A program made the position numbers and the translations under genes. Of a stretch of 64,000 nucleotides of DNA, positions 15,587-55,924 are shown in pieces. Every line of letters starts with the position of its first letter. Position 1 is the stretch's first letter. Source of the stretch: Methanomassiliicoccales archaeon UBA280. Its GTDB lineage: Archaea > Thermoplasmatota > Thermoplasmata > SG8-5. Below the pieces are notes generated by a model. The model was not told where the DNA came from, made no database searches, and saw only the letters and a program-made list of their open reading frames with translations. Location: positions 1,315-65,314 of the forward strand of contig DAKD01000032.1 in assembly GCA_002499085.1 (NCBI GenBank), given 5' to 3'.

Positions 15587-16333
15587 TCACAATGCATTAA
15601 TGACAAACTCGCACACGGTCCTGAATGATGGCGTTTCTCCCACCAGTTGAGCCATCTCGCTGTCCCATTTCCTTTCCAGTAACTTGCATTGTTTCATGAA
15701 ATTCTCACGATTGAATTCCAGGTCATAATATTGAAGCTTCTGGTTAACGGTGTCGAGATCGGGTTTCTTTCCTCCGAGCATGAGCATGTAGAGGTCATAC
15801 ATGTCCCTGGCCTTGCTCCTCGTCAGTATGGCGCGCACTTTCTCTGAGGCGATTTCTTCCGGATTCATGACCTCGATAATGTAAGGAAGTATGTCCGCGT
15901 AAGGCGGCGCGATTTCCTTCCGCTCGGGCTCTTCAAAGACTGATTCTCTCTTGCTTATTTCTATCCGCACCGAAGAAAGGCTCTCCGGCCCCTTGTAAAG
16001 CGGGCCTTGTATCAGCAGCCTGAAACCTATGGTTCTTTCATCATCCATAGTTCTGTCTGATTCAGATGGGTAGTTGTAGGCATCAAGTGCGCTTGTAACC
16101 GCCCTGCTCAGCCGCTCCATGGTCTGCGGTTTTCTTGCGGTGAAATCCAGGTCTTCGCTGAATCTTGTAACTATCCCTGTTTTTTGAAGAGCCGTACCTC
16201 CTTTGAATGTGATCTCGCCGCCCATGTTTCTGGAAATGGCCCCCAAAATAATATGCTGCAAATAGTCTTTCTCCACCTGGCCAAGCGAATGTCCGGTTAT
16301 TCCGATGTATTTTTTCAGTTCTTCCCTGTTCAT
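15587..16333 (-). CDS. abiEii: AbiEii/AbiGii-family nucleotidyltransferase toxin (type IV TA)
   Basis: Hallmark FKGGTAL...RFSEDLDF motifs. ATGA overlap with the upstream antitoxin gene. Confidence 0.88.
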   Translation of the reverse strand: MNREELKKYIGITGHSLGQVEKDYLQHIILGAISRNMGGEITFKGGTALQKTGIVTRFSEDLDFTARKPQTMERLSRAVTSALDAYNYPSESDRTMDDERTIGFRLLIQGPLYKGPESLSSVRIEISKRESVFEEPERKEIAPPYADILPYIIEVMNPEEIASEKVRAILTRSKARDMYDLYMLMLGGKKPDLDTVNQKLQYYDLEFNRENFMKQCKLLERKWDSEMAQLVGETPSFRTVCEFVINAL

Positions 16334-17055
16334 TCAATCACCGTGTTCACGATTATTCGCCACTTCGGGTCATACTTGCCTTGCTTCGGGTTTTTCGGGT
16401 CTAACGGAACATAAGTTTGAGATAATCCACCGAAGTCATACGGCTGGCAAGAGTATCCGGCTTTTTCCAGAAGGTACCCTGCCCGTTTCATCACCGATTG
16501 TTTCTCGCTTCTCTTTGCATATTCAATAATTTTTTCCGGTTCTATCGTGCTGGACATGGAAAAATAGACCTCGTCCAGCGAGATATAGTCCATGTATTGC
16601 AGGCTATCGATTATGGCCCGTTCTTTCTCAGCTATAAAGGCAATTTTGCCTTCTATTTTGACTTTCTTGATGCCATATATTTTTGAGGACGCGGTATTGA
16701 TGAACCTAATCTGGAAATTACCGGTTTCCAATTCGATCTTCAGAACACACGGCCTTTTAGTGCAGACCACATCCACCATTCTTGGCATCTGGGTTGTGGC
16801 TCCATAATATTCGAAAGCTTTCCATAGTGAAACATAAGACGGAAAGTAAATACTGGACGCTATGCAAAGAATATCAGTATCGGGCAGAGCGAATCTTCCC
16901 CGCATGATTCTGGTCAGTTCGTTCGCGCCAATCATCCGATTCAACAGGACGGCGGCATACGCACTATCTTTGCCCAATATCGCAGAGAATTGTTGCACTG
17001 TAAACACCGGTATTTGCATGTTTTCTAGCATTTTTACGACCGAAAGCCTGTTCAT
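16330..17055 (-). CDS. abiEi: AbiEi-family antitoxin / transcriptional regulator
   Basis: N-terminal wHTH (FTVQQFSAILGKDSAYAAVLLNRMIGANELTRIMRGRFAL). Position and coupling to abiEii. Start trimmed to the Met at 17055. Confidence 0.8.
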   Translation of the reverse strand: MNRLSVVKMLENMQIPVFTVQQFSAILGKDSAYAAVLLNRMIGANELTRIMRGRFALPDTDILCIASSIYFPSYVSLWKAFEYYGATTQMPRMVDVVCTKRPCVLKIELETGNFQIRFINTASSKIYGIKKVKIEGKIAFIAEKERAIIDSLQYMDYISLDEVYFSMSSTIEPEKIIEYAKRSEKQSVMKRAGYLLEKAGYSCQPYDFGGLSQTYVPLDPKNPKQGKYDPKWRIIVNTVIE

Positions 17056-17149
17056 CGAGTAGGATAGCACAATTATCATATATATGTCTTTTGATGTCAC
17101 CAGATTATCATAAATGTAATTTAGCGACAATAAAGTACATATATTATCA

Positions 17150-17299
17150 TGCAATTATCTCGTCCAGAACGATCCTGACCATCTCGACTTCGACTGCGAG
17201 TACCTGTTTGATTAATTCAACAAGAAGGTCAGTCATCTCCAGGCGCTTGCTGGTCGCCTCGATTCCCTCGTAGGTTCGGGCAAGGGTGAGGTAGTCCAT
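17150..17299 (-). pseudogene. Displaced, diverged 5' fragment of the DNA ligase gene
   Basis: MDYLTLARTYEGIEATSKRLEMTDLLVELIKQ compared with the intact lig MDYLTLAQAYSRIEATSKRLDMTDLLAELFRK. After ~32 codons similarity is lost and a stop follows. Confidence 0.8.
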
Positions 17300-42852: not shown

Positions 42853-43140
42853 AGAAATTGTTGAATGAATTTGTTGCGAGATTGCTCATTCAAGGCGAAC
42901 GCCTTTATTTTCCATCCGAAGTCCTTTCCCTCCATCCGAGGCCTTCGGCACTCGGAACGATTCAGCTCCGGCGTTCACCGATTGCTCATAGGATGTTGCG
43001 AGCCGCATGGCCGCTCGAATCCGCTAAAATTCAATGCCGCGCCATGGTCGAACCTCTGCGCAGATGTGTCGGTGGGCGGTTCAACTTTCGTAAGGTGTTC
43101 ATGATAACATATGAACACTTTCGGCAACCCCCCGTCAATG

Positions 43141-43169: not shown

Positions 43170-43886
43170 ATGCACGTCACGGTGCAGTTGAATAGAGTAG
43201 GGGGGAAAGACGCGTCCTACGACCACAACTTCCATCTCGGAAGCGCGGTCTACACATTATTGAAAGAAAACGGGGACGGCGCAGCGGAAGCACTCCATGA
43301 GTCACATTATCGTTCAGCTTATGTTTTATCGGAAATTCACAGGGTCGGCGGAAAGCCAGGCGAGGCCTGGTTCCGGGTAGGGACAGAAAATGATGCGGTC
43401 CTCAAGATAATATCTAGGGCACTGCCTTCCAGCCAGAAACTCCATGTAGGCGGAGCTGAGTTCGTGGTCACAGGCCAAAATTTGGATGACCCGGTCGTCC
43501 GCCCAGGGGAGTTCATCACCCTCAGCCCCATCCTCCTGCGGGACAGGGAAACGGGCAAGAGCATCGTGCATGACACCCCGGGTTACAAAGAAACCCTGGA
43601 AGCGGCAATCAACGCCCAGATAAAGAATTACATGAAAGTCGATGGAACCGTAAAGCTCATACACTTCGAGCCCCAGGCTGTCAGGAAGCGCACAATCAAG
43701 GAGAAAACGGTTCTGGCGCAGAAGGGCCGGTTGCTGCTGGACGGGGAGGAGGAGCAGTTGCGGTTCTTGGTGAACCATGGCGTGGGGTTGAGCCCGGCGT
43801 TGGGGTTCGGGATGGTGGTGGGAGCCAATGATAGGTGTACTTACAACGATGAGGAAGATATATATCATTATCACAGGGGTGAATGA
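43170..43886 (+). CDS. cas6: CRISPR endoribonuclease Cas6 (stand-alone)
   Basis: Dual-RRM-sized protein with a C-terminal glycine-rich loop GVGLSPALGFGMVV typical of Cas6. GC-rich like the host. Confidence 0.8.
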   Translation: MHVTVQLNRVGGKDASYDHNFHLGSAVYTLLKENGDGAAEALHESHYRSAYVLSEIHRVGGKPGEAWFRVGTENDAVLKIISRALPSSQKLHVGGAEFVVTGQNLDDPVVRPGEFITLSPILLRDRETGKSIVHDTPGYKETLEAAINAQIKNYMKVDGTVKLIHFEPQAVRKRTIKEKTVLAQKGRLLLDGEEEQLRFLVNHGVGLSPALGFGMVVGANDRCTYNDEEDIYHYHRGE

Positions 43887-46696
43887 TGTCCCAAGTGAGT
43901 TCACCTAACAATACACAAAAATGGATTGCTGGTGCATTAGGATTGAAAAATAATGATTCCCCGTTTTCATGGCAAATGAGGCTCTTTGAAAACTTCAAGA
44001 AAGGTGAAATTCCTCGCTTACTCGATATCCCCACAGGACTTGGCAAAACTGGTGTTATGGCCATATGGCTCGTAGCACGGGCTATCGGCGCACCAATGCC
44101 TCGTCGACTTGTCTACATCGTGGATAGGCGAGCCGTTGTAGATCAGGCAACGGAAGTGGCGCTTAACATTCGGACCTTCGTGGAAAATACGCCAGAATTG
44201 AAAAAAAATCTCGATTTGGAGGCACATGCACTTCCAATCTCCACCCTCCGCGGTAAATTTGTAGATAACAAGGAATGGCTAGAAAATCCAGTTTCACCCG
44301 CAATTATCGTTGGGACCATTGACATGATTGGTTCTCGACTTTTATTTGAGGGATATAATGTTTCACGCAGGATGCGACCGTTTCATGCAGCCCTCCTCGG
44401 AACAGATTCACTCATTGTCCTTGACGAGGCTCATTTAGTACCGCCTTTCGAGAAACTTCTTGAAACTATTGATGATGGCAAGAATGTTTTTGGCCCATAC
44501 AAAGAGGAACAGAAAATAATTATACCCACATTCAAACTTATTGCATTGTCTGCCACAGGCCAGTCAGATTCGGGAACTATTTTCAATATCGATAATGCAG
44601 ATTTGAAAGTTGGCACTGTCACTTCTCAACGTCTTAATGCTAAAAAACAAATTGTTATTGAGGACATCGAAGATGGAAAGGAATTATCAGAGGCCCTAGC
44701 AAAGAATGCCTGGAAACTCTCTGAAAATGGCAAACTCGCTGTTAAAATTGTTGTATTCTGCGATAAACGCGAAGATGCTGAGAAAGTTAAGAAAGCCATT
44801 GAGAAGCACTCGATGGGCGTTAATAAGAAAGAAAAACCACCCATTGAACTCCTTGTTGGTAGTCGTCGTGTATACGAAAGGGAGAAAGTTGCACAATGGC
44901 TAAAAATTCATGGTTTCGCAGATAAAGATATAAATGTGGAGGAGCCCACATTTTTAGTTGCGACTTCTGCTGGTGAGGTTGGAGTTGATCTTGATGCGGA
45001 CCATATGGTTTCCGACCTTGTCGCTTGGGAGCGCATGGTACAACGCCTTGGACGGGTGAATCGATTTGGCAATGGTGCTGCTCGCGTGAATATAATAGTG
45101 TCATACGACAAAAAGGCACCAGACGCATATAAGAAAACACCAGAAATTCGTAATGAAAATGAACAAGAATTAGCAGAAAAATACGAGAGGTTAATAGCGA
45201 CACGTGAACTACTCGCCAAATTGCCTAAAATTAATGGAGGTTATGATGGCAGTCCAATAGCATTATGCAACCTAAAGAATATGGCAAATAACAATGATGA
45301 ATTAAAATCCCTTTTCGATAAAGCTATTACGCCATCGCCCCTAAGGCCAGCCCTTACACGGCCTTTAGTGGATGCTTGGTCTATGACATCCCTCAAGGAA
45401 CATACAGGGCGACCAGAGATTGGTCCCTGGTTGCGCGGATGGGTAGATGATAAACCGCGAGTGTCGGTTATCTGGCGAAAGTACCTACCTGTTCGTTGGT
45501 CAGGGGACAGACGGGTTAGTGTTTCAGCAAGCGAGACAGAAGCTTTTTTTGAAGCCGCACCACCTCATATGAGTGAAATGCTCGAAACAGAATCATATCG
45601 AGTCGTTGAATGGCTCAAGAAACGTGCAAAAATTATTGAACCACCCCAGTTTGTCGGTTCTTCTGCAGACACCGACAATGAAGATCAAGATATTCATTAT
45701 CTCATTCAAGAAGATGATATAGTGGCTAATGTTTTGTCACCAGCTCATGAAATTAAAAAACTCCTCACATTGAGCAATCTTCTGCAAGAAAAAGAGGAAC
45801 TGGATGATTTATCATCGGGTTGCATTATTGTCCTTGACGCACGTATTGGAGGGCTGAGTGATGGACTTCTCGATAAAGATAAAAAATCAACTCCGCGAAC
45901 AGCCGACGATGGTCAACTGTGGACGCAAGTAGGTTCAGAAAATGCGCAGTCCACACCAGTTGTTCATTTTCGTATCAGAAAAATGAATGAAGAATTGGAC
46001 GAAGATGTTAATGAAGAGTGGCACGAAAGCCTTAGATTTCCCACGAAAGTCATGGAAGATGGGGAGTCATCTGAGTGGCTTATTATCGAAAAATGGCATG
46101 GCTCCTCCGAAACAGAAGAAAGTCGCTCAACTGGATATCTCCAACTTCTGGACAATCACAAAGAAGAGGTGGAGAAAAAGGTGCAATTCATCGCGGACAA
46201 ACTGAGCTTTCCTGAGGAATATGCAAACATGCTTCGCATCACGGCGAGACTACATGATGAAGGTAAAAGGGTCAATTGTTGGCAGCAGGCATTTAACGCA
46301 CCCAAAGATGGAAGAACCTATGCCAAGACGAAAGGACCCATAGATCAGGACATTCTAAACAAATACCGACATGAACTTGGTTCTCTATTATTTGCAGAGA
46401 AAGACCCTGAACTTTTGGCTCTTCCAGAAGATAAGCGCGAGTTAGCACTTCATATGATTACAGCCCATCATGGATTCGCCCGTCCAGTCATAACCACACA
46501 TGGCTGTGAGGAAGCACCGCCATCGTTGTTGAATGAAAAATCAAAGGAGATTGCCTTACGCTTTGCACGATTACAGAAACAATGGGGACCGTGGGGTCTC
46601 GCCTGGTGGGAAACAGTACTCAGGGCAGCAGATCAACAGGCATCACGTGTTGATGAAGAAACTATTAACACGAATGGAGGAAAACGCGATGGCTGA
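43883..46696 (+). CDS. cas3: Cas3 helicase with C-terminal HD nuclease (type I-G/I-U architecture)
   Basis: Walker A PTGLGKTGV and DEAH box VLDEAHL. The HD domain is at the C-terminus (RLHDEGKR...HELGS...ITAHHG). ATGA overlap with cas6. AT-rich. Confidence 0.9.
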   Translation: MMSQVSSPNNTQKWIAGALGLKNNDSPFSWQMRLFENFKKGEIPRLLDIPTGLGKTGVMAIWLVARAIGAPMPRRLVYIVDRRAVVDQATEVALNIRTFVENTPELKKNLDLEAHALPISTLRGKFVDNKEWLENPVSPAIIVGTIDMIGSRLLFEGYNVSRRMRPFHAALLGTDSLIVLDEAHLVPPFEKLLETIDDGKNVFGPYKEEQKIIIPTFKLIALSATGQSDSGTIFNIDNADLKVGTVTSQRLNAKKQIVIEDIEDGKELSEALAKNAWKLSENGKLAVKIVVFCDKREDAEKVKKAIEKHSMGVNKKEKPPIELLVGSRRVYEREKVAQWLKIHGFADKDINVEEPTFLVATSAGEVGVDLDADHMVSDLVAWERMVQRLGRVNRFGNGAARVNIIVSYDKKAPDAYKKTPEIRNENEQELAEKYERLIATRELLAKLPKINGGYDGSPIALCNLKNMANNNDELKSLFDKAITPSPLRPALTRPLVDAWSMTSLKEHTGRPEIGPWLRGWVDDKPRVSVIWRKYLPVRWSGDRRVSVSASETEAFFEAAPPHMSEMLETESYRVVEWLKKRAKIIEPPQFVGSSADTDNEDQDIHYLIQEDDIVANVLSPAHEIKKLLTLSNLLQEKEELDDLSSGCIIVLDARIGGLSDGLLDKDKKSTPRTADDGQLWTQVGSENAQSTPVVHFRIRKMNEELDEDVNEEWHESLRFPTKVMEDGESSEWLIIEKWHGSSETEESRSTGYLQLLDNHKEEVEKKVQFIADKLSFPEEYANMLRITARLHDEGKRVNCWQQAFNAPKDGRTYAKTKGPIDQDILNKYRHELGSLLFAEKDPELLALPEDKRELALHMITAHHGFARPVITTHGCEEAPPSLLNEKSKEIALRFARLQKQWGPWGLAWWETVLRAADQQASRVDEETINTNGGKRDG

Positions 46697-47558
46697 ATAT
46701 TCAATTCCTGTTGATATTTTCAACCCTGGCCAAGTATTCGCGTCGCTGGGGTTTCTGGAAGCGGCAGATGTACTTCTTGGTGATGTAGAAGGTGGCTTTG
46801 ATTGGACTGATTATACAAATGTACGCTTCATACTTCGTACGGGGAATGATAGAAATCCATTCAAAGAAGTACTTGAATTTATTGCGAATGCAAATATGGT
46901 TTGTTTAGCTCCACCAAATTATAAAACATCTAAATCCAGGTCAATTCGAATATCTGAATGTTTTCCATCAAAACATATTAAGGATAAGGAATTTCCATGC
47001 AGATTCGAGAAAAATGGTTTTGCAATCAACATCAGTCATTGGGCTGACAGTTCAAGTCGAGATAATTTCAAGCAATTTGCTGGAAACCAAAATCCAAGTG
47101 AAACCATTCTACCTCAATTGCAGAGCGGTATTAAGGAATTGTTGAAATGTGATACTTATTTTATCGAGAATCCGTTCGAGAGTATGCTGCCAATTGGGCG
47201 CATAAGCTGGAAACTAGATGCACGTTCGGCGTGGACCGCTAGAGATGTGGGGTACTCTCTTGAAGACCAGAAGTATGCTTTAATGTCATCTCCTGTAGTG
47301 GAACTTTATGCAGCTATCGGTTTCGAAAACGCTAGGCCTTTCGTCGATTTGAATAACAAATTAAAGGTTAGTTATGGTGTTTGGAGCACTGTTGTTGCTC
47401 CACTATTATGTCGTCCTGTTATAGGCGGCATCAATACGGGTATACCAACACGTATCTTCGAGTTTATTCGAAATAAATCTGGAAAAAACGGAGAATATAA
47501 ACAAACGACATATGCAAACGAAGTAACCATAGAAAATAATGGAGTTGATGAAAAATGA
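46689..47558 (+). CDS. csb3: Csb3/Cas8u1-like protein in the large-subunit slot of type I-G (289 aa)
   Basis: Position between cas3 and csb1. The N-terminal IPVDIFNPGQVFASLGFLEAADVL matches my recollection of the Csb3 (Dpsyc subtype) signature. 8-nt overlap with cas3. Confidence 0.6.
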   Translation: MAEYSIPVDIFNPGQVFASLGFLEAADVLLGDVEGGFDWTDYTNVRFILRTGNDRNPFKEVLEFIANANMVCLAPPNYKTSKSRSIRISECFPSKHIKDKEFPCRFEKNGFAINISHWADSSSRDNFKQFAGNQNPSETILPQLQSGIKELLKCDTYFIENPFESMLPIGRISWKLDARSAWTARDVGYSLEDQKYALMSSPVVELYAAIGFENARPFVDLNNKLKVSYGVWSTVVAPLLCRPVIGGINTGIPTRIFEFIRNKSGKNGEYKQTTYANEVTIENNGVDEK

Positions 47559-48658
47559 ATAAAGAAAAAGATAGCGAAGAACTTGTGGTGGACGAGGCGA
47601 TGTTGAATGATTGGGCAACGAACCCAAAGGGGCCCGTCGCCCTTGTTTTAAAGGAGAAATTAATGCCAGTCGAGGGCGAAAGGGGAATTATTTTCCCTCC
47701 AACGTATGCAGATATCGGTTACAACATTGACGAGTTGTCAGATGGGAAAAAGATCGCAACAATAGATAGTGTAGGGTCTCAGGCCAACCGAATGGAACCT
47801 TTGTTCAAAGAGGAATCACTTAAAGACCTTGTGCCACAGATTGATATAAAAATTAACGAAGAAAAAATAATATCCATTTTTGATATTGGGCATCGACTGG
47901 GGGATGCACTTATACGTTGTAGTGATTTTTCAGCCGAAGCTAAAGAGGCATTCGAGAATTGGCGGGAAGGGGACGCTTTCAAACTAGCCAAACTTGCGCC
48001 TACTTCGATAGTGTTCGGTGCTTGGGATTCTCGGGATACAGCAGCCAAATTACCTCGTATAGTTCAATCAGTAATCCGTGCATGGGATGTTACAGAACTA
48101 AAACGTTCTGCAACATATGTTCCACCAGTGGATTACTCAAAACTCGACATATTTTCTGAAGAAGATAAGGCAAAAGCCGAAGGAGATACGAAAAATCCTT
48201 TAGCAAAGCGTGGCTTCGTGCATGTCCCTGCAGGAAAAGTACCTGGTGGTGTGATAGCTAATGGCCCTATTTACCGCGATGTCACGGTGAATCTGGTTGC
48301 TCTGCGTCAGATTAAATCCAAAGAAAAGAGAGATGAGCTTCGTAAGTATATTCTTGGCTTGTCGTTAACTGTTGCAATCCAGCCACTCGATGGATTCCTG
48401 CGGCAGGGTTGCCTTCTTACGCTAGATCCAACGGTGAAAGAGTCTTGGATTGTAGTTAATCGTGATGGCACCCGTCAATCCGTAACAATCAAAGAACAAA
48501 CAGTACTCGATTACGCAAAGAAATCATCTAATAATTTTGGTGTTGGTAAGTCAAAAAAAGCAGAGTTTGACAAAAAGAAGGCTAAGGAAGATTCACAGAA
48601 AGATAAGAAGAAAAAGAAGGGAAAAGATAAGGAAAATGAGGAAAAAAAAGACCAATAA
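47555..48658 (+). CDS. csb1: Csb1 / Cas7 of type I-G (GSU0053 family RAMP) with Lys-rich C-terminal tail
   Basis: IFPPTYA...IDSVGSQANRMEPLF and FGAWDSRDT motifs are typical of Csb1. Tail KKKAKEDSQKDKKKKKGKDKENEEKKDQ. ATGA overlap with csb3. Confidence 0.8.
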   Translation: MNKEKDSEELVVDEAMLNDWATNPKGPVALVLKEKLMPVEGERGIIFPPTYADIGYNIDELSDGKKIATIDSVGSQANRMEPLFKEESLKDLVPQIDIKINEEKIISIFDIGHRLGDALIRCSDFSAEAKEAFENWREGDAFKLAKLAPTSIVFGAWDSRDTAAKLPRIVQSVIRAWDVTELKRSATYVPPVDYSKLDIFSEEDKAKAEGDTKNPLAKRGFVHVPAGKVPGGVIANGPIYRDVTVNLVALRQIKSKEKRDELRKYILGLSLTVAIQPLDGFLRQGCLLTLDPTVKESWIVVNRDGTRQSVTIKEQTVLDYAKKSSNNFGVGKSKKAEFDKKKAKEDSQKDKKKKKGKDKENEEKKDQ

Positions 48659-48661
48659 TCG

Positions 48662-50179
48662 GTGTTCACAATGTTGAGAAACCTTCTTATCAAAGTCAAT
48701 TTTCACGATGGACGATTCCATGGATCGAATGACTGGCCACCGTCCCCAGCTAGGCTGTTTCAAGCATTGGTTGCTGGTGAGGGTGTTGGTGGACCGATTT
48801 CGGATATGAAAAAAGCGACTTATCAATGGTTAGAATCCCTCGTTGCTCCAATTATATTGGCACCAATAGCTAAGAAAGGAAGCAAAGTGACTTTTTTCGT
48901 CCCGAGAAACGACTTTGATTTTGTCAAAGGAGATTTCAATAAAGTGAATGAAATCCGATACCCAAAGACAATCACACCCTGGTTGTTCGATGCTGCGCAT
49001 CCAACTATCTATATCTGGGAATTCCAAGATGAAGATGTGGAACAAGCAAAAAATGTATGCCAATTCGCCGAGAGTTTATATCAACTCGGCCACGGGGTTG
49101 ATATGGCATGGGCCACCGGGGAAATCATTGAACCTGAAAAGGTGGATGAAATATTGAGAAACTACCCAGGACAAGTTTATCGCCCAACAGCCAGAACGGG
49201 TTCCACCGAAAGATGGGCGTGCCCTTGTCTCGGTACATTCGAAAGCCTTGAGAAACGTTACAATACTGTACGATTCCGAAATGAGAATGGTGGGCAAGTG
49301 TTACGCCCCCCCTCAGCTAAATTTGCGATGATTGCCTACAACGCCCCTCCCAATCGTTGTTTGTTTGAGCTTCGAAAAGTCACCGATAACAGGCAGTTTA
49401 ACTCTATACCACTTTATAAATCTGCGAACCTTGTCATTAAAATACGCGACGCTGCAATCCAGAAACTGCTTAGTGTATTTCCCCAAGAAGAAAATCATGT
49501 GAAAAATGCATTGAACAGTAAAGTACATAATAGCAATCGTGGAATGAAAGATAATTCTCAAGTGAATATCATCCCACTTCCCTCTATTGGCCACCGTTAC
49601 GTTGATTGTGATATCAGGCGCATTCTCGTCGAGGTTCCTCTCAATTGTCAGTTAAATGCCGAAGATGCATTTTGGGCATTTTCAGGGCTCACCCTTGCAG
49701 CAACTGATATGAAAGGAGAACTGGAAACGATTCTCACGCGAATCAGGGTGGGTGGCAAACAGAATATGCTTGCCCATTACGGTGTAATTGATAAATCAAA
49801 ATTCAAGATATGGCACACAGTGACCCCCGCTGCATTGCCAGATGAAGCAAAAAGGCGGCGCATTGACCCCACACGAGGTCATGAGGAATCAAAGTCTGGG
49901 TCGGAACGTGCTGGTGAAGAGATGCAAGCAGCTGTCGCAATTTTCCATGAATTGCGTAATGTCCGTATGCTACCACAAATCGAATCAATCCATGTGCAAC
50001 GCGAACCGTTTCAGAGCAGGGGAATGCGTGCGGAGGCATTCAGTATCGGTACGGAATTTGCGAAAGAACAACTTTGGCACGTTGAAATTGCGTTTAAAGA
50101 ACCTGTTGATGGCCCACTTCTGATTGGCAATGGCCGTTTCCTCGGCCTTGGAGTTATGGCACCTGTAAGGAATGCATGA
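48662..50179 (+). CDS. csb2: Csb2 / Cas5(-Cas6 fusion) of type I-G (GSU0054 family)
   Basis: N-terminal signature FHDGRFHGSNDWPPSPARLFQALVAG. The ~500-aa size fits the Csb2 family. GTG at 48662 or ATG at 48671. Confidence 0.85.
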   Translation: MFTMLRNLLIKVNFHDGRFHGSNDWPPSPARLFQALVAGEGVGGPISDMKKATYQWLESLVAPIILAPIAKKGSKVTFFVPRNDFDFVKGDFNKVNEIRYPKTITPWLFDAAHPTIYIWEFQDEDVEQAKNVCQFAESLYQLGHGVDMAWATGEIIEPEKVDEILRNYPGQVYRPTARTGSTERWACPCLGTFESLEKRYNTVRFRNENGGQVLRPPSAKFAMIAYNAPPNRCLFELRKVTDNRQFNSIPLYKSANLVIKIRDAAIQKLLSVFPQEENHVKNALNSKVHNSNRGMKDNSQVNIIPLPSIGHRYVDCDIRRILVEVPLNCQLNAEDAFWAFSGLTLAATDMKGELETILTRIRVGGKQNMLAHYGVIDKSKFKIWHTVTPAALPDEAKRRRIDPTRGHEESKSGSERAGEEMQAAVAIFHELRNVRMLPQIESIHVQREPFQSRGMRAEAFSIGTEFAKEQLWHVEIAFKEPVDGPLLIGNGRFLGLGVMAPVRNA

Positions 50180-50700
50180 TAATGAACAAAGAATCCACGA
50201 CCATAACACATGATGCTATAACCCCCTCCGGCAAAGCCGCCTTCTACCTCCATTCCTGCCCGGTCCTGACCTGGCTATACCTCCACGGACAACTCGTCGT
50301 CAGCCCGAGCCATGTATACATCCAGAGCGGAAAAGAACTCGACGCCCAGCGCTTCTCCAACAAGCGCTCCATCGACCTCTCCCCCTATGGGAAAGCGGAC
50401 TGGGTCACCGGCACCCAAACAAGTCCAGTAATCCACGAGGGCTCGCGCGGCAAGCGGCACAATGAGCCGAAGCGCGCCCAGCTCCGCCATTACCTGTGGG
50501 CCGCCAAGCAACTCTACAACATCGACGCGGTCGGCGAACTTCACCTGAAACAGGGCAACGTGGAGAGAGTCGAACCTGACCACGAATCGGTGGAAAAAGA
50601 CCATGCCAGGCTGCTGGAGATAATGAACGGCCCGATGCCTGAGCCGAAGAAAATCCCGATATGCAAGGGTTGCACGAACAGGGACTGGTGCTGGGGTTGA
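50176..50700 (+). CDS. cas4: Cas4 (RecB-like nuclease with Fe-S cysteines), stand-alone
   Basis: N-terminal Cys (HSCPVLTW), QxxxY (AQLRHY) and C-terminal CKGCTNRDWC. ATGA overlap with csb2. GC-rich again. Confidence 0.8.
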   Translation: MIMNKESTTITHDAITPSGKAAFYLHSCPVLTWLYLHGQLVVSPSHVYIQSGKELDAQRFSNKRSIDLSPYGKADWVTGTQTSPVIHEGSRGKRHNEPKRAQLRHYLWAAKQLYNIDAVGELHLKQGNVERVEPDHESVEKDHARLLEIMNGPMPEPKKIPICKGCTNRDWCWG

Positions 50701-50791
50701 TGCTTAAGGGGGCTTCGCATGTCAAGTGACAAAAAACACAATTAGTGTCTTATAGCGAGCGAAGCCTTTATATAGAATACTTTTCATACAG

Positions 50792-52018
50792 GTGATTATG
50801 ACGGAAGAGATACTGAGACAATTCAATCCCTGGTGGGAGAGGGAATACGAATCGCCCGGCATTCCGAGGCCGGATTACATCAGAAAGATTCGGGACGCCC
50901 TCGCCCGGCAGAATGTGGCGATTCTGTATGGCCTGCGCCGTGTCGGTAAGACCACCATAATGAGGCAGTTCGTCGCCCAAACGCTTGGAACCTTGCCGCC
51001 CGACAGGATATATTTCGCTTCCATGGACCACCCGGACCTCGGGAGAACGTCCATCATCGAAATCCTGAGGGAGTTCAGAAGGATCACCTCCGCCAGGACT
51101 GACGAGAAAGTGTTATTACTGTTGGATGAAGTTCAGCACAGGAAAGGGTTTGAGAAGGAGATCAAGGCCATCGTCGATATGGACGAGAAGGTCCAGATTA
51201 TTGCGTCAGGGTCTTCAAGCCTTGCCCTGGCTCACGCAAGCCCTTATCTGACAGGCAGATATAGCCGTGTTCCGGCCCGGCCTTTGAGTTTCCTAGAATT
51301 TATCTCCTTCAGGGCACAGAAGTACTTGGAACATGAGCCGCAACTCATGGAAGCGCTGATGGATGAGTACCTAGTCACCGGGGGAATGCCGAAATACGTC
51401 ATGACTGGCGACCCGTTGATTATCACAGAAATAATCGAAGATGTCATTTATAAGGACATATACGGCCAGTATGAAATACAGGATCCACAACTGCTCAAGG
51501 AACTCTACTACCTACTCATGGTGCGGGTGGGAAAACCGCTTAGTTTCCGCAAGATGGGAAGGCTAATAGATATGAGTGTTGACACGGCCAGAAGGTATGT
51601 AGGGTATTTCCAAGAGGCATTCCTAATAGATGTGGTGGAGAGGGAAGGGTCGCCCAACGTTCGCAAGGCTTCGCCCAGGAAATGCTATGCTCCAGATACT
51701 GGAATTCGTGCAGTCATTGCGGGTGAAAGCAACATTGGCTCCCTCGCTGAAAATGCGGCTTATCTCAAGCTCAAAGAGGAGGGGCCCGTGAGATACCTGT
51801 CTGAGAAGAACGGGGAGATAGATTTCCTAATCGGCGGAAAGGCCGTAGAGGTCAAATACTGGGACCGGGTGGAAAAGGAACAAATTCCGTATCTTGTCAA
51901 GTTCAAAGGAAGGCAGGTGAAGGATAAAATTGTCGTGTCCAGGAGGGTCAGTCCGGACATCGGGAGAATCAAGAACGTACCTTTATGGCGCTTCCTGGTC
52001 GACGAGAGGGAACGATGA
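50792..52018 (+). CDS. AAA+ ATPase of the COG1373 / AAA_14 + DUF4143 family (C-terminal PD-(D/E)xK-like motif), embedded in the adaptation module
   Basis: FNPWWE start, Walker A GLRRVGKTT, Walker B LLLLDEVQ, a wHTH-like middle, and C-terminal GEIDFLI...AVEVKY. Its stop overlaps the cas1 start (ATGA at 52015). Confidence 0.85.
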   Translation: MIMTEEILRQFNPWWEREYESPGIPRPDYIRKIRDALARQNVAILYGLRRVGKTTIMRQFVAQTLGTLPPDRIYFASMDHPDLGRTSIIEILREFRRITSARTDEKVLLLLDEVQHRKGFEKEIKAIVDMDEKVQIIASGSSSLALAHASPYLTGRYSRVPARPLSFLEFISFRAQKYLEHEPQLMEALMDEYLVTGGMPKYVMTGDPLIITEIIEDVIYKDIYGQYEIQDPQLLKELYYLLMVRVGKPLSFRKMGRLIDMSVDTARRYVGYFQEAFLIDVVEREGSPNVRKASPRKCYAPDTGIRAVIAGESNIGSLAENAAYLKLKEEGPVRYLSEKNGEIDFLIGGKAVEVKYWDRVEKEQIPYLVKFKGRQVKDKIVVSRRVSPDIGRIKNVPLWRFLVDERER

Positions 52019-53010
52019 AGGACTACTACATATTCCAGAACTGCAAGCTGGACGCGGACGAACACGTTCTCCACATCGAAGGCGATAAAAGCCGCAGATT
52101 GCCGGTGGAGGAGATCGCCGGGCTGCATCTTCTCTCCGGGTACTCAATCACCAGCGGCGTCATCGACCTGGCCGCGAAGCACAACATACCGATACACGCC
52201 TATAATTTTCATGGAATCTATCATGGAACATTCTTCCCGCCGCCTGTGGAGCCGACCGGCTCCATTCTCATTGGCCAGGTGAAGAGCAGGTTGGACGAGG
52301 GCAGGAGATTGGAACTGGCAAGGTGCATCCTGGAAGCATCCAACCGTTCGACAAATGCCCTGTTGAAACCTTTCGAACTGGAATTGTCCTGCGCAATCGA
52401 GGGAGACAATGTTGAGATGTTCATGCTCTCGGAAGCGCGGGTCCGAAAGGAATACTATGCCCTGCTGGACACCATACTTCCGGCATTCTGGAGCATTGTC
52501 AAGAGGGAGCGCCAGCCCCCGAGAAGGCCTGCCGATGCGGTGCTGGGGTTCGCCAACGGTATTCTGTATGCGAAAATGGCAGGCTGGATTCATCGGGCGG
52601 GACTTGATCCCAGGATAAGCTACATCCACGGGGAAAGCCGCGCTAGAAACCCTCTCGCGCTAGACCTAGCCGAGGTTATGAAGGCGCCTCTTTCGGAAGC
52701 AATATTATTGGAAATCGCTGCCAGCGGCTCCGAGAGGAGCCTGATAACGGAAGTGGGGGAGGGTGTTTATCTGAACGAAAAGGGCAGAAAAATAATCATC
52801 CAGTTCATAGAAGAAGCTCTTAAAAAATCAGTGCGCCCTCCCGGAAAGGACCGAGAGGATATCGTCGAAGCGTGGGGAAGTTCGGTCCCGAGAAAGCTCC
52901 ATAGATGCCTCGTGGAGGATAATAATCCTAACTTACCGGTGATGCCATGTACGTTGTCGTCGTCTACGATGCGGACCCTCATGAACGAGAGATCATCCGT
53001 GCCGTACTGA
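52015..53010 (+). CDS. cas1: Cas1 integrase
   Basis: Typical N-terminus (YIFQNCKLDADEHVLHIEG...IPIHAYNFHG) and catalytic region (SEARVRKEYY...NGILYAKMA...GLDPRISYIHG...RNPLALDLAE). Confidence 0.9.
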   Translation: MKDYYIFQNCKLDADEHVLHIEGDKSRRLPVEEIAGLHLLSGYSITSGVIDLAAKHNIPIHAYNFHGIYHGTFFPPPVEPTGSILIGQVKSRLDEGRRLELARCILEASNRSTNALLKPFELELSCAIEGDNVEMFMLSEARVRKEYYALLDTILPAFWSIVKRERQPPRRPADAVLGFANGILYAKMAGWIHRAGLDPRISYIHGESRARNPLALDLAEVMKAPLSEAILLEIAASGSERSLITEVGEGVYLNEKGRKIIIQFIEEALKKSVRPPGKDREDIVEAWGSSVPRKLHRCLVEDNNPNLPVMPCTLSSSTMRTLMNERSSVPY

Positions 53011-53198
53011 TGCCGAAGTTGCACTGGATACAGAACAGCGTCTTTGCAGGTGAGATAAATCAAGTGGCTGCGAAGGACCTTCAGAAATCATTGACAGATT
53101 TTGTGCGAGATTCTAAGGTCACTTTCTGGCTATTCGATAAAAAGCCGGAGACTTTCCAGATTGGCTCACAGGATGATGGCGAATCGATTTTCTTGTGA
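52947..53198 (+). CDS. cas2: Cas2
   Basis: MYVVVVYDAD...IQNSVFAGE... ferredoxin-like Cas2 pattern, 83 aa. Confidence 0.9.
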   Translation: MYVVVVYDADPHEREIIRAVLMPKLHWIQNSVFAGEINQVAAKDLQKSLTDFVRDSKVTFWLFDKKPETFQIGSQDDGESIFL

Positions 53199-53302
53199 GC
53201 CAAAAATCATATAAACAGGAAGTAATATATATGACCTGAAGAAAAGGCCAGACCTGAAACATAACCAATCCGAAAGCTTTTTAAATGATGAGTCAAGGTC
53301 TT
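53199..53302 (+). promoter_or_regulatory. CRISPR leader (AT-rich, 104 bp between cas2 and the first repeat)
   Basis: AT-rich sequence with ATATATATGA and TTTTTAAATGATGA boxes directly upstream of repeat 1. Confidence 0.6.
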
Positions 53303-55924
53303 GTCGCTCCCGCCCGCCTACGAGGCATTGAAACACGCTCCCGGACCTGGAGGGCAGGCTGAGCGCAAGTCGCTCCCGCCCGCCTACGAGGCATTGAAAC
53401 CGAAGTACTTCTGAAGGATCGCGGTTTTTTCCTCGTCGCTCCCGCCCGCCTACGAGGCATTGAAACGTAGAGTGACGGGACATCGCACCCCAGCACCCCC
53501 GTCGCTCCCGCCCGCCTACGAGGCATTGAAACCTGGGCGAGCAGGGCCTGGAGCTTCAGCATGATCGTCGCTCCCGCCCGCCTACGAGGCATTGAAACTT
53601 CTTGTTGAAGGTTATCGAGGTCTTGCATTCCTGTCGCTCCCGCCCGCCTACGAGGCATTGAAACGATAGAGCTAACCTACAGCGATGCCATGGGTAATGT
53701 CGCTCCCGCCCGCCTACGAGGCATTGAAACTGTCAATCCGAAGATAGAATCACTCTAGCCCCGAGTCGCTCCCGCCCGCCTACGAGGCATTGAAACTGCA
53801 ACAGAAGCTTGTCCTCCTGGAGCTCGGCCCGTCGCTCCCGCCCGCCTACGAGGCATTGAAACAAAATATCGGGCACACCCAGCGCCATACTGTACAGTCG
53901 CTCCCGCCCGCCTACGAGGCATTGAAACACGACGCAGTTCATGAAGTACGTCAACCCGACATGTCGCTCCCGCCCGCCTACGAGGCATTGAAACACGACA
54001 ACAGGATCAGCTCCGCAATCAACCAGACAGGTCGCTCCCGCCCGCCTACGAGGCATTGAAACCACACTATACGCCAGCAGACTACTGCATGAAATCGGGT
54101 CGCTCCCGCCCGCCTACGAGGCATTGAAACGATGAAACCGCCATTGACTGTTGAGATTGTGGCATGTCGCTCCCGCCCGCCTACGAGGCATTGAAACAAT
54201 GTCTCTAGGTGCTTCAGCTGCCTCTGGGAGCCGAGTCGCTCCCGCCCGCCTACGAGGCATTGAAACAAGGTCAGCTGGAACCACACGAAGCTGGCGAAGC
54301 GTCGCTCCCGCCCGCCTACGAGGCATTGAAACTTGGAAAAGGACAATTTCATGGGCATTGCAATCCGTCGCTCCCGCCCGCCTACGAGGCATTGAAACCT
54401 GTTGGCTGAGGAATTCTGCCCGATAGTATTTTGTCGCTCCCGCCCGCCTACGAGGCATTGAAACCAGAAATGATTAGAAGTTCCCCCAATCAGTTATCGT
54501 CGCTCCCGCCCGCCTACGAGGCATTGAAACGAGCGCATGCCGGGGAACCTGAACATCTGTTTGAGTCGCTCCCGCCCGCCTACGAGGCATTGAAACAAGT
54601 GTAATGTCCAACCAGGCCCAGCCATAACGGGTCGCTCCCGCCCGCCTACGAGGCATTGAAACGTGGTCATGGGGATTGCCCCCTCTGAGGTTCGGGAGTC
54701 GCTCCCGCCCGCCTACGAGGCATTGAAACCAGGTTGTCCGCGTATGTGTCAATGGCGCTCTTGGTCGCTCCCGCCCGCCTACGAGGCATTGAAACTGCAG
54801 GACCTTGTTGTACGTCGACACGACGGCCAGTCGCTCCCGCCCGCCTACGAGGCATTGAAACGACAGATCCAGCGGGGATATGACCAATCCGACGGGTCGC
54901 TCCCGCCCGCCTACGAGGCATTGAAACGCCAAGTCATCCGCCGACATGCTGATCAGAACTAGTCGCTCCCGCCCGCCTACGAGGCATTGAAACGTATAAG
55001 GTGGCCACGAATCAGAAACTCATGGCTGCGTCGCTCCCGCCCGCCTACGAGGCATTGAAACACGGGCCTCTCCTGGCTGCACACCGAACCCATCAGTCGC
55101 TCCCGCCCGCCTACGAGGCATTGAAACATGCCCTTGGCTATTTCTCTGGCCGTTTGCCCCGGTCGCTCCCGCCCGCCTACGAGGCATTGAAACAAGGTCC
55201 TGTTAGTCTATCATAACGACAGACTAAGGTCGCTCCCGCCCGCCTACGAGGCATTGAAACGACTATTGCACCAGCAACGCGACCGGCCACAACTGTCGCT
55301 CCCGCCCGCCTACGAGGCATTGAAACAATCGACTCTGGGCGGGTGTTCGCTGGAATACTCGGTCGCTCCCGCCCGCCTACGAGGCATTGAAACTTAAATG
55401 CGCAAGGTGTTGTAAGGTATCCAGATATGGTCGCTCCCGCCCGCCTACGAGGCATTGAAACGATTTTGAAACGATAAGTTGTAAAGTAAGTACATGTCGC
55501 TCCCGCCCGCCTACGAGGCATTGAAACAACCAATTACCTCAAGATACCGATGTACCTCAGCGTCGCTCCCGCCCGCCTACGAGGCATTGAAACAAAGCTG
55601 GCGGGATAATACAGACGCCCGTACCAGGTCGCTCCCGCCCGCCTACGAGGCATTGAAACAATAAAAATAAACTGGTGTTCCCGACCCCATAGGGTCGCTC
55701 CCGCCCGCCTACGAGGCATTGAAACGAGCATGCGATAGAGTACACCAGCACAGACGGGTTGTCGCTCCCGCCCGCCTACGAGGCATTGAAACAGTATCCA
55801 GCCCACCCCATCCATGCAATTCACATGTCGCTCCCGCCCGCCTACGAGGCATTGAAACTGAAATAAGGGAGCGCGGCGCCCGCGATTACTCCGTCGCTCC
55901 CGCCCGCCTACGAGGCATTGAAAC
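53303..55924 (+). CRISPR. CRISPR array: 40 copies of the 32-nt repeat GTCGCTCCCGCCCGCCTACGAGGCATTGAAAC, with 39 spacers of 34-37 nt
   Basis: All repeats were located by hand (first at 53303-53334, last at 55893-55924). No variant repeat was noticed. The GTCGC...ATTGAAAC repeat type is shared with I-C/I-G-like families. Orientation is inferred from the ATTGAAAC 3' end and the leader next to cas2. Confidence 0.98.

Follow-up and report, generated by a model that had tools for sequence, protein, structure and literature searches.

A bacterial-style type I-G interference cassette in an I-B/I-D-serving CRISPR-Cas scaffold of a Thermoplasmatota archaeon

In the literature searched, type I-G systems of the Csb1/Csb2/Cas3g kind are described from bacteria. 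The canonical systems of Geobacter sulfurreducens (GSU0051-0054/0057-0058) and Thioalkalivibrio sulfidiphilus share Cas3g, Cas8g2, Csb1 and Csb2 with the locus studied here and have no cas11. Cas4 and Cas1 are fused in described I-G systems, as an earlier note on this DNA had stated; sampled bacterial I-G loci (L038, L042 and L043) carry the fusion, in operons without cas6. In T. sulfidiphilus, Csb2 binds a 36-nt repeat with a 7-bp hairpin. The cas3-cas8u2-cas7-cas5/6 genes of G. sulfurreducens alone provide interference in E. coli (PMC6547450), and some GSU0054-type Csb2 may thus need no partner.

Swapping of effector modules is already known in archaea. Adaptation modules that are almost identical were described in Methanocaldococcus next to type I interference modules of three kinds (2014, PMC3973734). 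The locus presented here is another instance of the same process. It differs by a module of the Csb1/Csb2/Cas3g type, I-G in the current classification, and by breakpoints mapped at the nucleotide level inside cas6 and cas4. The term 'I-G' as used in 2014 for the Methanocaldococcus example appears to follow an older, different naming scheme.

Gene content of the locus

The window, the whole 64,000-nt stretch of DNA that was analysed, encodes archaeal eIF-6, topoisomerase VI A and B and Hef. Relatives of its Cas6 carry the names of Thermoplasmatota or Methanomassiliicoccales MAGs. The host is a Thermoplasmatota (Methanomassiliicoccales-like) archaeon and the locus lies on its chromosome.

Nine genes on the forward strand precede a leader and a CRISPR array (Table 1). 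Profile searches recovered all the genes that the earlier note had named from the sequence (cas6, cas3 with its HD domain, csb1, csb2, cas4, an AAA ATPase gene, cas1 and cas2) with one correction: its csb3 is a member of the GSU0052 family, Cas8g2, which scored above the TIGR04106 cutoff and occupies the large-subunit slot. The stop/start chaining was observed as ATGA at 43883, 47555 and 50176 and as an 8-nt overlap at 46689, but csb1 and csb2 do not overlap and are separated by 12 nt. The HD domain of Cas3g is C-terminal (residues 761-901), as in type I-G. Models for Csb1/Cas7g, Csb2 and Cas8g-type proteins scored above their cutoffs, cas11 is absent, and besides the effector genes no further ORF was found between cas3g and cas4. 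TIGR02165 covered Csb2 over model positions 2-492 of 492. An alternative GTG start lies at 48662; the gene call on the JGI and Logan contigs gives 502 aa.

Table 1. Features of the CRISPR-Cas locus (positions in the window)
Feature	Position	Strand	Basis
Candidate archaeal TATA box TTTAAATA, ~22 nt before the cas6 start codon	43141..43148	+	sequence; putative function
cas6, stand-alone crRNA endoribonuclease, scaffold part	43170..43886	+	Pfam Cas6_C PF01881 44.8 bits, cutoff 23
Left cassette boundary	43805..43861	.	alignment, blastn, ML GC change point
cas3g, type I-G helicase-nuclease	43883..46696	+	TIGR02621 596.5 bits, cutoff 400
cas8g2, GSU0052-type subunit, 289 aa	46689..47558	+	TIGR04106 151.7 bits, cutoff 125
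csb1/cas7g, backbone subunit	47555..48658	+	TIGR02570 141.7 bits, PF09617 134.8 bits
csb2, 502 aa, ATG start	48671..50179	+	TIGR02165 248.8 bits
cas4, unfused, scaffold part, 174 aa	50176..50700	+	PF01930 69.9 bits
Right cassette boundary	50222..50242	.	alignment, blastn start points, GC3 step
AAA_14 + DUF4143 ATPase gene, scaffold accessory	50798..52018	+	PF13173 95 bits, PF13635 49 bits
cas1, unfused, 331 aa	52015..53010	+	TIGR00287 173 bits
cas2, 83 aa, overlaps the cas1 end	52947..53198	+	PF09827 47 bits
Leader, TATA-like TTTTTAAATG ~20 nt before the first repeat	53199..53302	+	
CRISPR array, 40 identical 32-nt repeats GTCGCTCCCGCCCGCCTACGAGGCATTGAAAC	53303..55924	+	

Profile models and gene layout agree with the earlier description of I-G effectors next to a stand-alone cas6 and separate cas4 and cas1 genes. 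This sets the locus apart from the canonical I-G systems. A cas6, absent from the I-G architecture as described so far, heads the operon. The ATPase gene separates cas4 and cas1, and the Cas4g/Cas1g fusion model gave only 80 bits with the Cas1 of the window (cutoff 560). Cas1 is nearest to the I-B model Cas1b, TIGR03641, whose score of 189.8 bits is below the cutoff of 304.1 for an assignment to type I-B. The 83-aa form of Cas2 aligns over its full length with Cas2 of sister loci. The host is an archaeon, the repeat is shorter than the canonical 36 nt and nearly unstructured where that has a 7-bp hairpin, and spacers have 34 nt. The array holds 39 spacers, all unique, with 34-37 nt and mostly 34 nt.

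One scaffold with different interference cassettes

The locus has two components: a scaffold, comprising the cas6 core, the cas4 core, the ATPase gene, cas1, cas2, the leader and the 32-nt repeat, and an interference cassette, cas3g-cas8g2-csb1-csb2, in a slot flanked by cas6 and cas4. The scaffold is that of Thermoplasmatota I-B and I-D loci: cas6, cas4, cas1, cas2, leader and repeat are orthologous and in the same order. The locus L009/L014 of Methanomassiliicoccales archaeon UBA147 and other I-B/I-D loci of Thermoplasmatota have 79-91% identical scaffold proteins and use the same slot. Between cas6 and cas4, I-B relatives encode cas8b-cas7-cas5-cas3 and I-D relatives (L021, L015 and L027) cas10d-csc2-csc1-cas3', versus the I-G cassette in the window. 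Further I-G cassettes are present in L007/L012, L013 together with L040, L026, L035 and L039, and the MAG S2_100 has an I-G and an I-D locus together. A bacterial-style I-G cassette sits where close relatives hold I-B or I-D, a clear natural effector-module swap. The suggestion of the earlier note that the cassette was swapped into a cas6...cas4-cas1-cas2-array scaffold is supported by these relatives.

Scaffold and cassette are incongruent in their protein identities. The Cas6 of the window shares 79-84% identity with Cas6 of I-B, I-D and I-G loci, Cas4 75-89% and Cas1 80-91% with the sister loci. For the I-B locus L009/L014, the values are 84% (Cas6), 81% (Cas4) and 89% (Cas1). Cas6 cores of an I-G (L007), an I-B (L009) and an I-D locus (L021) are mutually 92-93% identical. 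The ATPase gene is found in the same slot in the I-B locus L011, with 70% identity, and after the array in L040, with 76% identity. L007 shares 80-91% identity with the window in its scaffold proteins and just 46-69% in its effectors. L026 has the nearest Cas3g (73%) yet a more distant Cas6 (66-69%). L007 and L013 share 95% nucleotide identity over cas6 and cas3g; after cas3g, cas8g and csb1 fall to 50-63% protein identity.

The boundaries of the cassette were mapped inside the flanking genes. On the left side, homology to I-B and I-D loci ends at 43820, 63 nt inside the cas6 3' end and directly past the codons of the Cas6 motif GLSPALGFGMVV. This is the end point of blastn alignments with L009, L011 and L021 and of a nucleotide alignment of seven loci. 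Homology to these loci returns at about 50222, 47 nt inside cas4, at the Cas4 residues P-S/T-G-K-A-A-F-Y-L-H-S-C-P; blastn alignments start at 50222 for L011 and at 50242 for L009. Nucleotide homology up to the breakpoints is 72-83%. Since homology ends inside cas6 and restarts inside cas4, neither break coincides exactly with a gene junction. The Cas6 tail varies in sequence with the cassette type, and the first ~16 codons of cas4 are variable between loci and cassette types.

Repeat and leader track the scaffold, not the effector. The repeat of the window matches the repeat of L009/L010 (I-B) in all but 1 of its 32 positions and the repeat of L040 (I-G) in all but 2; these I-B and I-G sister loci both have 34-nt spacers. 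The leader resembles the leaders of L010 (I-B) and of L007 and L040 (I-G).

Cas6 and Csb2 as candidate enzymes of crRNA maturation

The first gene of the operon encodes a Cas6. The match to the Pfam family was accompanied by a TIGR01877 score of 48 bits, which is under the cutoff of 58.65, and by a sequence match to the archaeal Cas6 structure 5yi6 (E 8.5e-6). An AF2 model had a pLDDT of 88.6, with residues 224-238 below 50. Foldseek placed it next to the archaeal Cas6 structures 5yi6, 3qjj and 3pkm (TM 0.70-0.74, with E 2e-16 at TM 0.74). As expected for a Cas6, the protein folds as two RRM domains with a G-rich loop, GLSPALGFG, towards its C-terminus, and has the family-invariant residues H19 and H43. 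These best structural matches, from P. furiosus (3pkm), P. horikoshii (3qjj) and M. jannaschii (5yi6), process unstructured repeats. The Cas6 of the window shares 16-20% sequence identity with them and has an extra tail of 21 residues. Residues 1-217 form the conserved core; residues 218-238 are predicted to be disordered and depend on the cassette.

The Csb2 of the window consists of a Cas5-like domain and one Cas6-like domain, without a third 'X' domain. About 80% of the bacterial Csb2 relatives have a third Cas6-like domain, either fused or in a next-door gene; an extra C-terminal domain was found in 119 of the 150 best Csb2 cluster representatives. The X domain and the Cas6-like domain of Csb2 are homologues by hhalign (probability 88%, E 3e-6), and X scores 57-76 bits against TIGR02165 positions 252-491. 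The G-loop residue of X is a histidine in 127 of 193 sequences. Five bacterial loci with a short Csb2 were sampled; in three of them, the next gene encodes the X domain. In L041, also bacterial, a short Csb2 occurs with neither an X gene nor a cas6. No X-like ORF was found anywhere in the window and no X domain in the archaeal I-G loci. Judged from sequence, Cas6 seems to take the place of the X domain, the third and Cas6-like domain of most bacterial Csb2 relatives.

The closest bacterial relatives are 44-49% identical to the Csb2 of the window. The C-terminal domain is the best conserved part of the protein. It has the G-rich loop IGNGRFLGLG, and the invariant His473 (LWHVE) adjoins the loop, twenty residues upstream of loop position Phe493. 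All family-invariant residues including His473 are kept; therefore, Csb2 may still cut or bind the repeat. The catalytic His520 of the B. animalis Csb2 is located in the G-loop GQSRHFGGG, as read from mutagenic primers (GQSR-H520-FGGGLLIPM-D530). In the window, the loop is IGNGR-F493-LGLGVMAPV-R503, and a short motif alignment places Phe493 and Arg503 opposite H520 and D530. The catalytic histidines of both B. animalis and T. sulfidiphilus were placed on Phe493 by this short motif, not by a full alignment. Among the ~270 closest Csb2 sequences, this position is nearly always F, Y or W and never His.

According to the earlier note, cas6 was redundant. It could be a leftover of a replaced I-B or I-D system, with Csb2 alone maturing the crRNA by way of its Cas6-like domain, as known from described I-G systems, and cas6 persisting through linkage alone or serving another system elsewhere in the genome. 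Csb2 matches its family model end to end with all invariant residues, the Csb2 proteins of T. sulfidiphilus and B. animalis cleave their own repeats unaided and the four-gene cassette of G. sulfurreducens functions in E. coli. The predicted 8-nt handle of the window, AUUGAAAC, is close to the I-G handle of T. sulfidiphilus, AUUGAAGC, from which it differs by one base. A redundant cas6 is nevertheless unlikely, although it deserves some weight. The gene is intact and under purifying selection (dN/dS ~0.13). It is kept in all six archaeal I-G loci despite deep divergence, with identities down to 58% for Cas6 and down to 49% for Csb2, and all six are without the X domain found in most bacterial relatives. 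The repeat has only a weak 4-bp stem, does not outperform shuffled controls in folding energy and does not form the stable hairpin bound by characterised Csb2. By motif alignment, Phe and Arg stand where experiments defined the catalytic His and Asp in the Csb2 of B. animalis. In the I-B sister loci, a Cas6 with 84% identity to that of the window is the sole recognisable candidate for the processing nuclease. Cas6 is probably needed rather than redundant.

Base composition and assembly

The earlier note had seen the base composition switch exactly at two gene junctions. The GC profile confirmed the steps, not their exact position. GC3 is 0.66 for cas6 and drops to 0.36 for cas3g, 0.30 for cas8g2, 0.36 for csb1 and 0.40 for csb2. 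It is 0.74 for cas4, 0.63 for the ATPase gene, 0.65 for cas1 and 0.56 for cas2. The 27 long ORFs of the window outside the locus have a mean GC3 of 0.69 (sd 0.12). The scaffold is host-like, in comparison to the cassette with 0.36, which is 2.5-3 sd under this mean. A two-breakpoint likelihood model (gain 50 log-likelihood units) located the left change point at 43826, with a support interval of 43805-43861, ~60 nt inside cas6. At the csb2/cas4 junction, GC3 rises from 0.35 to 0.65-0.8, and the break in homology is inside cas4.

As a signature of the swap, the GC step did not hold up: it is not specific to an I-G import, and most sister loci have it, including those of types I-B and I-D, while others are without a step or show the reverse. 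In a comparison of 20 loci, the difference between cassette and scaffold GC3 ranged from -0.30 to +0.11. The scaffold was richer in 16 of the 20 loci, which covered three subtypes and included homogeneous loci; in GC-rich homogeneous loci, the difference was still -0.09 to -0.11. Therefore, part of the step may be gene-intrinsic and not a trace of transfer.

Taken further, this would mean that fast-evolving effectors drift AT-ward, conserved and frequently recombining scaffold genes stay GC-rich, and the locus could be a vertically inherited unit. The persistence of the step at a synonymous divergence of about 1 between sister scaffolds fits such a process. This divergence also indicates that the locus is not a fresh, unameliorated insertion. 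All synonymous distances are at least 0.8 and near saturation and thus give no relative dating of scaffold and cassette. Vertical inheritance with an intrinsic GC difference is, however, quite unlikely. The step varies widely in size, with a reversal in L029 and several flat loci, three effector subtypes adjoin nearly identical Cas6 cores, homology breaks sharply at both boundaries and identity is mosaic, as between L007 and L013. Subtype variety, sharp breakpoints and mosaic identity can only be explained by exchange, irrespective of the origin of the GC difference. An intrinsic GC difference and cassette exchange can both apply.

A chimera assembled from the reads of two organisms, a GC-rich archaeon and an AT-rich partner, is hardly credible. 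The window is metagenome-derived and five Logan contigs share a start at about 42937, but contigs from one JGI assembly (3300001580) and from several independent Logan assemblies, made from other runs (SRR5036787, SRR1313287 and SRR1313285), cross both junctions with 100% identity, so that the junctions are no assembly artefact. Reading frames overlap across the junctions, and no fewer than five further, divergent loci repeat the architecture.

Proposed function and meaning for Thermoplasmatota

The locus is likely an apparently intact hybrid type I system, in which a scaffold that serves I-B and I-D modules holds an exchanged I-G cassette and Cas6 is needed. The exchange may have occurred by homologous recombination anchored in the conserved cas6 and cas4 cores, so that the 21 terminal codons of cas6 and about 16 initial codons of cas4 would move with the cassette. 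The AT-rich cassette may stem from a gene pool with less GC than the host.

In the proposed function, transcription of the array would be driven by the leader. The stand-alone Cas6 would cleave the repeats 8 nt from their 3' end and leave the crRNA 5' handle AUUGAAAC. This step is modelled on the I-B sister locus, whose only candidate nuclease is the 84% identical Cas6 and whose repeat is 31/32 identical. The repeats of P. furiosus, P. horikoshii and M. jannaschii likewise end in an 8-nt tag of the AUUGAAA(C/G) type. Csb1 (Cas7g), Csb2 and Cas8g2 would build the complex on the crRNA, target DNA would be degraded by Cas3g, and new spacers would be acquired by the unfused Cas4, Cas1 and Cas2.

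A wider proposal is that the cas6 and cas4 cores are the fixed flanks of a cassette-exchange system, in which Cas6 has functionally replaced the catalytic third RAMP domain of the bacterial Csb2 lineage and its tail docks the effector. It is tentative and rather doubtful. If true, Thermoplasmatota would rotate I-B, I-D and I-G modules under one scaffold and one spacer archive, and sub-modules would be exchanged too, for example cas3g versus cas8g-csb1. The cassette-specific disordered tail of Cas6 would dock onto whichever effector complex is present. Module rotation would perhaps let populations escape anti-CRISPR proteins.

Gene content of the locus

Profile searches with Pfam and NCBIfam models identified a complete CRISPR-Cas locus on the plus strand (window 43170-55924). 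The ATGA and 8-nt overlaps between genes, claimed in the earlier note, are present in the sequence. The product of the first gene had been proposed as Cas6; it was recognised by the Pfam model and scored below the cutoff of the NCBIfam model. Its AlphaFold model (pLDDT 88.6) had the Cas6 enzymes of M. jannaschii, P. horikoshii and P. furiosus as top PDB matches (TM 0.70-0.74). The gene initially called csb3 occupies the same slot and belongs to another family, Cas8g2.

Features of the CRISPR-Cas locus (window positions) and loci of the additional Cas6-like domain X (positions in the comparison loci)
Feature	Position	Strand	Evidence
cas6	43170-43886	+	Pfam Cas6_C 44.8 bits (cutoff 23); NCBIfam TIGR01877 48 bits (below cutoff 58.65)
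cas3g, type I-G	43883-46696	+	596 bits; HD domain at residues 761-901
cas8g2, GSU0052 family	46689-47558	+	152 bits (cutoff 125)
csb1/cas7g	47555-48658	+	profile search
csb2	48671-50179	+	249 bits; model covered end to end
cas4	50176-50700	+	profile search
AAA_14/DUF4143 ATPase gene	50798-52018	+	profile search
cas1	52015-53010	+	best subtype model I-B Cas1b, not the I-G fusion model
cas2	52947-53198	+	profile search
CRISPR array	53303-55924	+	40 identical 32-nt repeats GTCGCTCCCGCCCGCCTACGAGGCATTGAAAC; 39 unique spacers
X-type loci, outside the window	L037 10529-11218; L038 10750-11676, 17036-17845; L042 9659-10618

The effector module belongs to type I-G; the architecture of the whole locus is not the one described for this type. 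Sampled bacterial I-G loci encode a Cas4-Cas1 fusion of 561-579 amino acids in an operon without cas6, whereas in the window cas4 and cas1 are separate and cas6 is present. The earlier note was right in singling out this departure. A literature search found no paper on type I-G in Methanomassiliicoccales or Thermoplasmatota and no I-G locus with a stand-alone Cas6 plus unfused Cas4 and Cas1. The text of the updated 2025 classification mentions neither type I-G nor Csb2.

The host is an archaeon by its marker genes: eIF-6, topoisomerase VI A and B, Hef and Thi4 are all encoded in the window. On the chromosome, the locus is flanked by Thi4/metallo-beta-lactamase on one side and eIF-6 on the other. 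All Cas6 relatives originated from Thermoplasmatota or Methanomassiliicoccales-type MAGs. A sigma-70 promoter and terminator scan was set aside as inapplicable to an archaeal host. In the window and in the I-B locus L011 (17047-18264), the ATPase gene separates cas4 from cas1. It follows the array in L040 (4587-5807) and is missing from L007 and L009. In L039, a MazE-PIN toxin-antitoxin pair (7708-8393) occupies its slot.

In a search for protospacers and a PAM, the 22-nt seeds of the three leader-proximal spacers had no match in IMG/VR viral contigs; the PAM of type I-G systems is TTN. Searches of the spacers against the window and the fetched loci gave no match except the identical contig L001 and one weak match in the L009 array (24 nt, 92%). 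Tandem Repeats Finder periods of 132 and 198 had pointed to related spacers; no pair was more alike than shuffled controls.

Scaffold, cassettes and breakpoints

The key comparison was that of the genomic contexts of the closest Cas6 homologues. It separates a scaffold (cas6 and cas4 cores, ATPase gene, cas1, cas2, leader and repeat) from an interference cassette in the slot between cas6 and cas4. L009/L010/L014, from Methanomassiliicoccales archaeon UBA147 and metagenomes, share 84% Cas6, 81% Cas4 and 89% Cas1 identity with the window and have a type I-B cassette, cas8b-cas7-cas5-cas3, in this slot. A type I-B cassette is also present in L011, where the ATPase gene of the window recurs in its slot between cas4 and cas1. 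Type I-D cassettes (cas10d-csc2-csc1-cas3') are present in L015, L021, L027, L029, L030, L019 and L020, and type I-G cassettes resembling that of the window in L007/L012/L023, L013 with L040, L026, L035 and L039. The Cas6 cores of L007 (I-G), L009 (I-B) and L021 (I-D) are 92-93% identical to each other. The MAG S2_100 has both an I-G locus (L012, contig VMTD01000007) and an I-D locus (L021, VMTD01000078), with near-identical Cas6 cores (93% for L007, the equivalent of L012, versus L021). Thus, the proposal that an I-G cassette sits in a pre-existing scaffold is borne out by related archaea in which the same scaffold holds I-B or I-D cassettes. The repeat of the window differs at one of 32 positions from that of an I-B locus and at two of 32 from that of the I-G locus L040; spacer length is equal and the leaders are similar among the three. 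In these alignments, the repeat tracks the scaffold and not the effector. Just 5' of cas6, L021 carries a 175-nt remnant (9665-9838) similar to window 50635-50809, the cas4 3' end and the sequence following it.

Nucleotide homology of the window to the I-B and I-D loci (77-83%) ends at 43820, directly 3' of the codons for the Cas6 motif GLSPALGFGMVV, and is back at 50222-50242, which encodes the Cas4 residues P-S/T-G-K-A-A-F-Y-L-H-S-C-P. Judged by these breakpoints, the C-terminal 21 residues of Cas6 and the N-terminal ~16 residues of Cas4 are part of the cassette. The Cas6 tail is alike within a cassette type, unlike between types, and predicted to be disordered.

Exchange has been repeated and has affected the cassette itself as well. 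L007 (9948-13667) and L013 (6697-10416) share 95% nucleotide identity over cas6, cas3g and the initial ~200 nt of cas8g. Beyond the cas8g start, protein identity drops to 50% for Cas8g and 63% for Csb1, a sign that recombination broke within the effector cassette. The scaffold proteins of the window are 80-91% identical to those of L007, the effector proteins only 46-69%. L026 has the most similar Cas3g (73%), yet its Cas6 is more distant (66-69%). The closest pair of loci is not the same for every scaffold gene.

A large step in composition was confirmed. From 0.66 in cas6, GC3 falls to 0.36 in cas3g, 0.30 in cas8g2, 0.36 in csb1 and 0.40 in csb2; it is 0.74 in cas4, 0.63 in the ATPase gene, 0.65 in cas1 and 0.56 in cas2. 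The other 27 long ORFs of the window have a mean GC3 of 0.69 (sd 0.12); the scaffold genes are therefore host-like and the cassette lies 2.5-3 sd lower. The earlier note had placed the switch exactly at two gene junctions. GC3 rises sharply at the csb2/cas4 junction. A two-breakpoint model set the left change point at 43826 (support interval 43805-43861), inside cas6. With breakpoints inside cas6 and cas4, the switch is thus near the gene junctions, but not exactly there.

The step is not specific to an I-G import, as it also occurs in I-B and I-D sisters. In 20 loci, the GC3 of the cassette minus that of the scaffold spans -0.30 to +0.11: the window and I-B/I-D sisters such as L011, L021 and L015 have strongly negative values, L019, L020, L030 and L034 values near zero, and L029 a positive one. 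Two I-G loci, L035 and L039, have a high GC content over their whole length. Such decoupling is consistent with movement of cassettes and scaffolds among hosts of unlike GC content. The negative sign in 16 of the 20 loci points to an intrinsic contribution as well.

Sister scaffolds have already diverged by ~1 at synonymous sites, which argues for an old hybrid arrangement and against a fresh insertion. Dating the exchange by dS was dropped: Nei-Gojobori values were at least 0.8 everywhere and saturated for most effector genes, too high to put the events in order. The locus is not an assembly chimera, as contigs that were assembled independently, in JGI 3300001580 and in several Logan assemblies of SRR runs, match it with 100% identity across both junctions. 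Five independent Logan contigs start within 4 nt of each other (window 42933-42937), ~235 nt 5' of cas6, where the JGI contig is continuous. The assembly graphs may branch at this point, e.g., through strain variation or repeated sequence.

Elsewhere in the window, a PQQ-like beta-propeller gene (5225-6490, plus strand; GC3 0.36) is probably also foreign, because its GC3 is as far below that of the host as the I-G cassette. An AbiEii toxin/AbiEi antitoxin pair (15587-17154, minus strand) is embedded in an island of low GC (0.42-0.48). The product of 8780-12112 (minus strand), an AAA_16 ATPase of 1110 aa with numerous TPR repeats and a STAND-like architecture, could be a defence or signalling NTPase.

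Maturation of the crRNA

Catalytic residues of Csb2 are H503 in T. sulfidiphilus (WP_012638992.1) and H520 and D530 in B. animalis. Translation of the B. animalis mutagenic primers gave GQSR-H-FGGGLLIPM-D, which places the catalytic histidine within a glycine-rich loop. In a short motif alignment, the loop of the window Csb2, IGNGR-F-LGLGVMAPV-R, has phenylalanine and arginine at the positions of the B. animalis His and Asp. Among the ~270 closest Csb2 proteins scanned, none has His at the position of the catalytic His, which is nearly always taken by F, Y or W. Another invariant histidine, H473, is retained in the window Csb2. The substrate of the T. sulfidiphilus enzyme is a 36-nt repeat that forms a 7-bp hairpin; the window repeat has only a 4-bp stem and folds no better than shuffled controls. 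The PDB sequence set contained no Csb2, and a search with an OCR-derived N-terminus of the B. animalis Csb2 gave no match. With hhalign, either Csb2 domain aligned to the stand-alone Cas6 family in the glycine-rich loop alone (probability 0.2%).

An Asp-to-Asn change in the loop (GDGRF to GNGRF) was considered as a marker of lost catalysis and rejected. Residue 490 (codon ~50138-50140) is Asn in the AT-rich archaeal clade (window, L007, protein P0080) and Asp in ~92% of close relatives. The GC-rich archaeal L039 keeps Asp next to a cas6, so the change does not track cas6 presence, and four bacterial sequences have Asn.

Most bacterial relatives have a further domain. Among the 150 best Csb2 cluster representatives, 119 (~80%) are ~700-775 aa long and carry an extra C-terminal domain, X. 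By hhalign, X is a homologue of the Cas6-like Csb2 domain (probability 88%, E 3e-6), and it matches TIGR02165 at positions 252-491 with 57-76 bits. No Pfam model matched X, and the only NCBIfam match was the C-terminal half of the Csb2 model. The G-loop residue of X is His in 127 of 193 sequences, and X ends with LGRSRHLGGGLF (e.g., P0082, P0129, P0171). Five bacterial loci with a short csb2 were sampled. The next gene encodes X in three of them (L037, L038, L042); the fourth, L043, has a second Csb2 with an X-like domain, and the fifth, L041, lacks X. One X copy adjoins a type III-A cassette. L043 (299-15609) has tandem I-G effector sets, csb1-csb2 followed by cas3g-cas8g-csb1-csb2, then a second Cas3 and a Cas4-Cas1 fusion; its first Csb2 has the X-like domain instead of the C-type domain. 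None of the archaeal I-G loci encodes X, and csb2 directly abuts cas4 wherever it is seen in full. Most members of the GSU0054-like branch thus have an additional Cas6-like domain, either fused to Csb2 or encoded next to it, and the accepted view of Csb2 as a crRNA-processing Cas5-Cas6 fusion seems incomplete for this branch. The archaeal loci may substitute Cas6 for this domain.

The scaffold Cas6 rather likely cuts the repeat and stands in for the missing X domain, as it is co-inherited with the repeat, is under purifying selection (dN/dS ~0.13) and occurs in archaeal loci without X. Cas6-type processing would cut the repeat between C24 and A25 and produce the 8-nt 5' handle AUUGAAAC. The main caveat is the four-gene G. 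sulfurreducens cassette that works in E. coli (PMC6547450). The cas6 gene, described as redundant in the earlier note, probably is not: its product would replace X, and it is kept upstream in all six archaeal I-G loci.

Module exchange and compatibility

Module exchange in archaea is a known process; it is well documented in Methanocaldococcus, where near-identical adaptation modules occur with three type I subtypes (Vestergaard et al., PMC3973734). More original leads are the nucleotide-level breakpoints within cas6 and cas4, the three effector types on one repeat and scaffold, and the substitution of X by Cas6.

Work on the type I-G Cascade has so far been confined to its native setting of a Cas4-Cas1 fusion and hairpin repeats. 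Here, nature has retained it alongside a canonical Cas6, a repeat of the I-B/I-D kind with almost no structure, and an unfused Cas4/Cas1/Cas2 adaptation module, all three foreign to it. The same Cas6, repeat and Cas4/Cas1/Cas2 also serve I-B and I-D effectors. For engineering, they point to pairings of effector and adaptation modules that nature has already validated. They raise the questions of which parts of the repeat are truly required by the I-G complex, and how one Cas4-Cas1-Cas2 chooses PAMs acceptable to three different large subunits.
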